This document shows, one piece after another, positions 1,571-54,327 of a DNA stretch of 64,000 bases. Position 1 is the stretch's first letter. The number at the start of each line of letters is the position of its first letter. The DNA comes from Eledone cirrhosa (lineage: Eukaryota). The notes under the pieces are model-generated. The model saw only the letters and a list, made by a program, of their open reading frames with translations. It was not told the origin of the DNA and made no database searches. Made by a program: the position numbers and the translations under genes. Where the stretch lies: positions 59,334,001 through 59,398,000 of the forward strand of contig OZ024744.1 of NCBI GenBank assembly GCA_964016885.1, written 5' to 3'.

Positions 1571-1864
1571 AAAACGAAGGAAATGTGGTAAGGAACCAGG
1601 TGGACCATAACGCACCAAAGTACTCAATACTTGAGGTAGTAGAGTGGGTAATAGGAACTGCATAGCGGTCTTACTGATTCCTATATATAAAGAAAAAGAG
1701 ATGAAATCGAAAATGCAACTGGAGTCTTATTTTTTTTAAAAGTATATATATTTATTTGGTTCTTTTACCGGTTTCGCAGTTCTTCTGCTTTTCAAAAGGT
1801 GAGTTGAGATGGAGGGTCTGTGGTTTTTCTCACAGAAAAACCACAGACCCTCCATCTCAACTCA

Positions 1865-1902
1865 CCTTTTGAAAAGCAGAAGAACTGCGAAACCGGTAAA
1901 GG
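1865..1902 (+). ncRNA. minimal type-I hammerhead ribozyme motif, U3-A8 core variant
   Basis: ccuu UUGAAAA gcag-aagaa-cugc GAAA ccgg UA aagg: stems I and II pair perfectly, palindromic stem III (accggt); mirror copy on the minus strand at 1762-1799. Confidence 0.7.
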
Positions 1903-2033
1903 AACCAAATAAATATATATATTTTTTTTAAAAATAAGACTTCAGTTGCATTTTCGATTTCATCTCTTTTTCTTTATACTTCCACTCGTGTAGGACACCT
2001 CGGTTATTTTTCATTTTGTAAAAAAAACCTCAC

Positions 2034-2086
<53 letters not shown>

Positions 2087-18582: not shown

Positions 18583-54327
<35,745 letters not shown>

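Follow-up and report, generated by a model that had tools for sequence, protein, structure and literature searches.

The genome of Eledone cirrhosa contains, on contig OZ024744.1, a near-perfect palindrome with a hammerhead-like motif in each arm. The locus raises the question of whether such a palindrome is a functional unit in its own right or the footprint of a mobile element, and of whether the hammerhead can be expected to cut. We analyzed it within a stretch of 64,000 nucleotides (positions 59,334,001 to 59,398,000 of the forward strand), referred to here as the window. The palindrome is very probably a head-to-head pair of 5'-truncated pLTRs from a young, high-copy Penelope-like element (PLE), likely a single (TA)n insertion, with U3-A8 hammerhead motifs that are predicted to be slow or assisted. 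The site itself is ordinary, being one among thousands of dead stumps.

The palindrome and its two hammerhead motifs

An earlier note on this DNA had described a near-perfect inverted repeat with arms of about 147 bp around a 3-nt loop at 1831-1833. The repeat was borne out by alignment of 1686-1830 with 1834-1978, which extends over 145 nt at 95.9% identity (E 1e-64) and includes an inner stretch of 66-67 bp at 1764-1900 that is perfectly paired between the arms. The loop was not, as its three bases (CAC) are element sequence of the left arm and the position is simply the join between the arms. The right arm extends for another 62 nt up to a (TA)n tract, and the insertion covers approximately 1684-2040 (Table 1).

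Table 1. Features of the palindrome and its flank, in window coordinates.
Feature	Position	Strand	Remarks
Inverted, 5'-truncated pLTR arm	1684..1833	-	Ends at the family's 'short' 3' end beside a few TA units
Left copy of the U3-A8 hammerhead motif	1762..1799	-	One stem I pair broken, 3' side AAAG
Head-to-head arm junction	1831..1834	.	A few bases downstream of the inferred RNA start
Direct arm (3' part of the family's pLTR)	1834..1978	+	
Minimal type-I hammerhead motif	1865..1902	+	4-bp helix I; predicted cut after A1898
62-nt 'tail' between the short and long family 3' ends	1979..2040	+	
(TA)n target tract	2041..2083	.	

The right motif is composed of stem I (1865-1868/1899-1902), UUGAAAA (1869-1875), stem II (1876-1879/1885-1888), GAAA (1889-1892), CCGG (1893-1896), U1897 and A1898. 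It has the features of a minimal type-I hammerhead: a U3-UGA-A-A8-A9 core with a Watson-Crick 3-8 pair, a 4-bp helix II with G10.1-C11.1, GAAA, UH, and a self-complementary ACCGGU that gives a palindromic helix III. The twin motifs of the earlier note are both real, but the left copy is not intact, having AAAG instead of AAGG at stem I. Helix I is formed by 4 bp in the right arm and in subfamily A of the family described below, by 3 bp in subfamily B, and by 1-2 contiguous pairs in the left arm and most relatives.

The right motif was the sole match to our first descriptor within the window. When the descriptor was allowed any Watson-Crick 3-8 pair, it matched none of 5000 dinucleotide shuffles of the 207-nt arm and one of 5000 shuffles of the 590-nt pLTR. 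An Rfam covariance-model search of the site returned no hammerhead match at E values up to 10, and MFE z-scores of the motif were not significant, as expected for so small a motif. Rfam matches to miRNAs at the site were discounted as generic hairpin scores below the gathering thresholds, and a match to MALAT1 as chance.

Several other features of the window were noted. A canonical CUGACGA...GAAA...GUA hammerhead-like motif, found by eye on the minus strand at 262-307, has imperfect helices I and II, failed the descriptor and apparently comes from another repeat. Two more palindromes lie beside TA tracts, at 1483-1626 (with (TA)n at its centre) and 2090-2131, and probably represent the ends of further head-to-head insertions. 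At 22978-23394 an exon matches Pfam WD40_2 (PF19056). The segments 43372-43767 and 52817-53272 are presumably exons of the same JIP3/JIP4-type host gene, and the window may therefore be largely intronic. A LINE-like RT remnant is interrupted at 46259-48260 by a long array of 21-nt tandem repeats that is open in several frames.

Family size and parent element

Sequence patterns, run over 3.0 Gb of the genome, were used for copy counts because a similarity search with the arm DNA skips very common words. Allowing U3-A8, as the earlier note had suggested, brought up thousands of matches: a pattern with C or U at position 3 and G or A at position 8 gave 6,516 (control 0), and all 100 that were listed are U3-A8. 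A wider pattern gave 11,569 (control 0), a minimum for the copies of the motif in the genome, and these fall into two subfamilies distinguished by the 5' side of helix I. Forcing C3 gave 10 matches, all of them C3-A8, which we read as scattered decay. With the core fixed as U3-A8, a strict CUGANGA search misses the motif, as had been anticipated; screens based on CUGANGA only would miss approximately 19,000 motifs in this genome.

The DNA of the window arm is continuous with that of a parent element coding for RT and GIY-YIG. The element is arranged as a pLTR with the motif, the tail, ORF1, ORF2, a 3' UTR of approximately 1 kb and the pLTR again, and the motif was present both upstream of ORF1 and downstream of ORF2 at loci L032, L080, L081, L086 and L087. 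Full-length copies carry intact frames for ORF1 (409-410 aa, stop to stop) and ORF2 (775 aa), with the ORF1 ATG approximately 28 nt beyond the tail end (2040 equivalent) and an overlap of the two frames in -1 that contains a UUUUUUA heptamer. ORF2 matches Pfam RVT_1 and GIY-YIG above cut-off, the GIY-YIG domain being C-terminal. It also contains a CX4CxxC linker ahead of the endonuclease and, between GIY and YIG, a pair of cysteines. Among its 821 database relatives, the linker pattern was present in all 120 homologues listed. The parent is thus an EN+ PLE by its domains, and on the basis of the linker motif, rather than of an RT tree, we assign it to the Neptune/Nematis type. The finding of the parent element, together with the features of the motif, supports the earlier proposal of a minimal type-I hammerhead in a Penelope-like pLTR.

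Seven ORF2 copies, selected for open frames, differ by only 4-21 nucleotides over 2,328 nt, and the family is therefore very young. For ORF1 we found three database relatives, 31% identity to the ORF1 of a second family (family 2) and no match in Pfam or the ESM Atlas. A metagenome scan with ORF2 gave no confirmed relative among 107 stretches. Sequencing runs X1-X4 (guessed to be RNA) gave no match, or only A/T-run matches, to the element. The same motif was seen at low depth in runs X22 and X24 (organisms G and H), which we do not count as independent evidence.

Counting the present one (family 1), three related families with ORF2 43-58% identical have an ORF1 that overlaps ORF2 in -1 (L080:2788-6257; L109:1800-5329; L120:2304-4933), each with UUUUUUA in the ORF1 frame. 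The -1 overlap with this heptamer likely represents a programmed frameshift in an endonuclease-bearing PLE. At L032:7110-7346 the contigs of X22 as well as those of X24 end at approximately 7346, and X19 shows many loose ends at that point, which may indicate a shorter or chimeric subfamily. A different Penelope-like ORF, split by a frameshift into an RT-like and then an endonuclease-like part, lies beside a family-1 element at L031:7673-9623 and gave no Pfam match.

Insertion form and the start of the element RNA

We determined the ends of 80 distinct oriented copies, in a sample that, like that of the pairs below, is small and drawn mostly from the beginning of one contig. The 3' end was at 2040 in 40 copies (five of these being upstream pLTRs that continue into ORF1), at 1973-1979 in 35, and elsewhere in 5. 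These two family 3' ends are 62 nt apart, each on a TATA-like word of the element itself, and the same two-end pattern was observed in families 2 and 3. When minus/plus pairs were considered, 19 of 24 combined a long with a short end (2040 + 1978) and none combined two short ends; four had one irregular end, and one was scored as two long ends, its inverted arm having been paired with an internal pLTR. Inverted arms are the normal insertion form of the family. The centres of the inversions vary, with a motif-to-motif spacing of 41 to 4,306 nt. The fold-back is thus a by-product of integration rather than a means of sequestration.

A second, separate head-to-head stump of the same family is located at 5-189 of the window, with a long arm at 5-141 and a short arm at approximately 119-189. 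It is truncated downstream of the hammerhead, is centred on an A/T palindrome and contains no hammerhead.

The earlier note had treated the fold-back as a feature of the element that sequesters the ribozyme. In support of a functional unit of this kind, whether a ribozyme with its sequestering antisense, a hairpin RNA, or a MITE or palindrome moving as such, RNA read through the palindrome is predicted to fold back at -233 kcal/mol with the hammerhead motif fully paired, and many insertions have arms of similar length. A fixed RNA start combined with two fixed 3' ends, however, accounts for the similar arm sizes. The variable centres and spacing, the occurrence of the same inversion at the head of full-length elements, and the inverted stump at 5-189 that lacks a hammerhead argue against a functional unit, and we consider it highly improbable. 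Two specific candidates were rejected. A MITE or fold-back element would have a fixed unit, but here centres and lengths are variable. A non-LTR retrozyme would form head-to-tail tandems of non-coding units, whereas these copies are head-to-head or single and are part of a coding element.

The 5' ends were determined for 30 unbiased arms, selected with a word located downstream of the cut, of whose 14,363 matches the first 30 were taken. Fifteen started at window-equivalent 1826-1837, a position uncertain by a few bases owing to microhomology, and eight further upstream; the others started at 1855 (one), 1892 (one), 1899 (one), 1903 (two) and 1912 (two). Longer copies have TATAAAA at equivalent 1797, 30 nt before the pile-up of 5' ends, which lies 30-40 nt after it; for this reason we read the pile-up as the RNA start, near equivalent 1827. 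In run X23, the kind of which is unrecorded, crude sums of contig depth rise from approximately 70-200 to approximately 3,700 at the pile-up. The centre of the window palindrome falls within it.

Twenty-five of the 30 unbiased arms span the predicted cut, and from these sequences inserted cDNAs appear to come mostly from uncut RNA. A pattern for arms that start at the cut gave 200 matches. In the first 30 of these a script flagged 12; by eye, 9 were real starts at the cut (two of them from one insertion), 1 was a duplication restarting there, and 20 were point or indel variants. Arms starting at the cut are thus estimated at about 60, which is 0.4% (perhaps 1%, allowing for the two non-A letters that the pattern requires), compared with a background of roughly 0.2% per position. 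Few head-to-head junctions had the ends of both arms near the cut (98 strand matches); approximately 16 of the 98 junction strings, counted by eye, start at the cut. A mild excess of arm starts at the cut is possible.

We propose the following scheme for the insertion. The element RNA would start near window-equivalent 1827, and the endonuclease would nick both strands of (TA)n. RT would then start inside the RNA at two sites, one per target strand, probably helped by TA microhomology, and both cDNAs would extend through the uncut hammerhead to the 5' end of the RNA and be joined there. In this reading the hammerhead fold is under selection in the master lineage, but the stump in the genome is dead and its fold-back without a role. 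Priming by TA microhomology is called into question by the Anolis element, for which RT starts are described at sites not homologous to the cut DNA (PMC11167929), whereas both ends here are on TATA-like words.

The U3-A8 core, its cleavage and known systems

U3-A8 is fixed in family 1, to which the window arms belong, and is common to three further families in the genome. Family 3 (ORF2 58% identical) has the same core with a different 5-bp helix II and C17. In family 4, considered at the level of the motif, position 7 is U and helix II has a third sequence. ACCGGU is present in families 1, 3 and 4. Family 2 (ORF2 43% identical, 826 matches) has C at position 7, a fourth helix II sequence and U3-A8 without a convincing helix I or a perfect palindrome. 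Pairing was tabulated by script, as MAFFT misaligned such short motifs, and helix II pairs beyond those specified by the pattern are formed in the main form of each of the four families. Because the stem II sequences differ between families and yet still pair, this comparison supports selection for the hammerhead fold and a Watson-Crick 3-8 pair in the lineage. A loose pattern of U3-A8 with ACCGGU gave 18,976 genome matches (control 5); a comparable pattern with C3-G8 and an unchanged stem III gave two, and the pattern search found no canonical-core (C3-G8) ancestor in this genome. Unrelated repeats carry canonical C3-G8 minimal hammerheads with differing palindromic helices III (L006, L009, L013, L015, L017, L018, L029, L038 and others), and by sequence the genome appears rich in PLE hammerheads.

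The earlier note took the covariation of positions 3 and 8 as a sign of selection for cleavage. This is only partly supported: conservation of the fold holds up, but the cleavage part is in doubt, given the weak helix I, a predicted U3-A17 pair and the mostly uncut templates. Comparing core with flanks among copies, a test it envisaged, says little, because copies hardly differ from one another and have presumably evolved neutrally since insertion; it is the comparison between families that is informative. Nor is the core novel. Perreault et al. 2011 (PMC3088659) describe U3-A8 as a covariation that occurs naturally and state that it is active in vitro, and Cervera and de la Pena 2014 (PMC4209133) report it in the Cercyon PLEs of Schistosoma mansoni, with approximately 1,300 matches.

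In the predicted fold of family 1, U3 can pair with A17 (-6.4 vs -4.7 kcal/mol), with a pairing probability of 0.56 in the monomer and 0.46 in the dimer. This pairing may be an analogue of the C3-G17 trap described in PMC3884650; our literature search found no paper on U3-A17 pairing. Because helix I is weak, U3-A17 is predicted, most arms read through the cut and only approximately 0.4-1% start at it, cleavage would be doubtful or slow, and is probably weak or protein-assisted.

Two other readings of the motif have to be weighed. One is a fully active dimeric ribozyme that would process element transcripts routinely in vivo, such as by cleaving tandem precursors or releasing an ORF1 message. 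The retention of the core, G10.1-C11.1, GAAA, ACCGGU and the UH triplet in families 1, 3 and 4 is consistent with this, as are the intermolecular pairing of ACCGGU in a co-fold of two copies (probability 0.92), the activity stated for U3-A8 and the possible mild excess of starts exactly at the cut. Relatives have, however, only 1-4 contiguous helix I pairs, U3-A17 is predicted in monomer and dimer alike, about half of the arms start at the inferred RNA start and very few at the cut, and minimal PLE hammerheads are reported to have low activity in vitro (PMC4209133). We regard routine processing as possible but somewhat doubtful.

Alternatively, the motif may have ceased to cut and be retained as a folded signal through which the RT-endonuclease or ORF1 binds or packages the RNA. 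Helix I decays, whereas helix II and the palindrome stay conserved; in an older subfamily the second pair of helix I is an A.A mismatch, and family 2 keeps U3-A8 and helix II without a convincing helix I. In the Anolis carolinensis Poseidon element (PAc), moreover, hammerhead mutants left insertion in vitro unaffected (Frangieh et al. 2024, PMC11167929). The same ribozyme is described there as cutting only when protein is added, which speaks against a purely structural role, as does the retention in all four families of the catalytic nucleotides and the Watson-Crick 3-8 pair needed for catalysis. A signal that has lost cleavage altogether seems to us unlikely. The reading that we prefer for the motif remains a hammerhead with slow or assisted cleavage.

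A broader proposal, which we put forward as a speculation and consider distinctly doubtful, is that a two-ORF, -1-frameshifting Neptune-type lineage of at least four families and approximately 19,000 motifs has fixed U3-A8; that the U3-A17 self-trap of the dominant family serves as a protein-gated switch or non-cutting RNP signal; and that each target strand is primed from one of two TATA-like internal sites. If true, one priming site per target strand would explain the head-to-head insertions with a single-arm tail of Penelope elements. The family is a convenient test case for what hammerheads do for PLEs: it is very young, has intact full-length copies and a fixed variant core, and has sister families with C17 or U17 instead of A17. 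Its thousands of insertion footprints record the RNA start, RT priming and the rarity with which the cut product is copied.

For this stump, the kind of element and the form of insertion are both known, and the core variant has been published. The hammerheads of Perreault et al. have the same compensatory core pair as those described here; they are rare core variants there (PMC3088659), whereas here the pair is fixed in a large retroelement lineage. The PLE hammerheads of Schistosoma mansoni Cercyon and other metazoans (PMC4209133) share the pLTR location, the short helix I, G10.1-C11.1, the U3-A8 core, a palindromic helix III that lends itself to dimers, and the occurrence of numerous dispersed single motifs together with close pairs on opposite strands, reported there at 100-700 bp. 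The present family differs from Cercyon in its far higher copy number (approximately 19,000 motifs, which are very homogeneous, against approximately 1,300), in a helix II of 4-5 bp rather than 7-8, in having no extra base before helix II, and in the A17 opposite U3 of its main family. The available portion of an octopus repeat annotation (PMC13282606) mentions Penelope-like families and not hammerheads.

With EN+ Neptune/Nematis PLEs the element shares RT with a C-terminal GIY-YIG, pLTRs and the CX2-5CxxC linker that marks these clades (Craig et al. 2021, PMC8557442). An adjoining inverted 5'-truncated copy, a single-arm tail and a microsatellite target, all found here, are described as standard in PLEs (PMC8557442; Arkhipova et al. 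2013, PMC3846280), the tail being 62 nt here and 30-40 nt there. Canonical EN+ PLEs are single-ORF, whereas in families 1, 2 and 3 a separate ORF1 of approximately 400 aa overlaps ORF2 in -1. Two ORFs do not exclude membership of the superfamily, as two-ORF PLEs are on record: the legend of Fig. 1 of Craig et al. lists a frameshifted ORF1, the clade not being evident from the legend (PMC8557442), and a killifish Neptune has two non-overlapping ORFs (PMC12602865). Our literature search found no -1 frameshifted ORF1 described for an EN+ clade, although the figures or supplement of PMC8557442 may show one.

A further close parallel is PAc, in which, according to Frangieh et al. (PMC11167929), the tail is bounded by two internal RT start sites, cutting and extension take place on both target strands, and the ribozyme is dispensable for insertion in vitro. 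Two internal RT starts that define the tail, an AT-rich target and uncut RNA as the main template are common to PAc and the family described here. PAc differs in its canonical C3-G8 core and in its single ORF, which begins inside the hammerhead.
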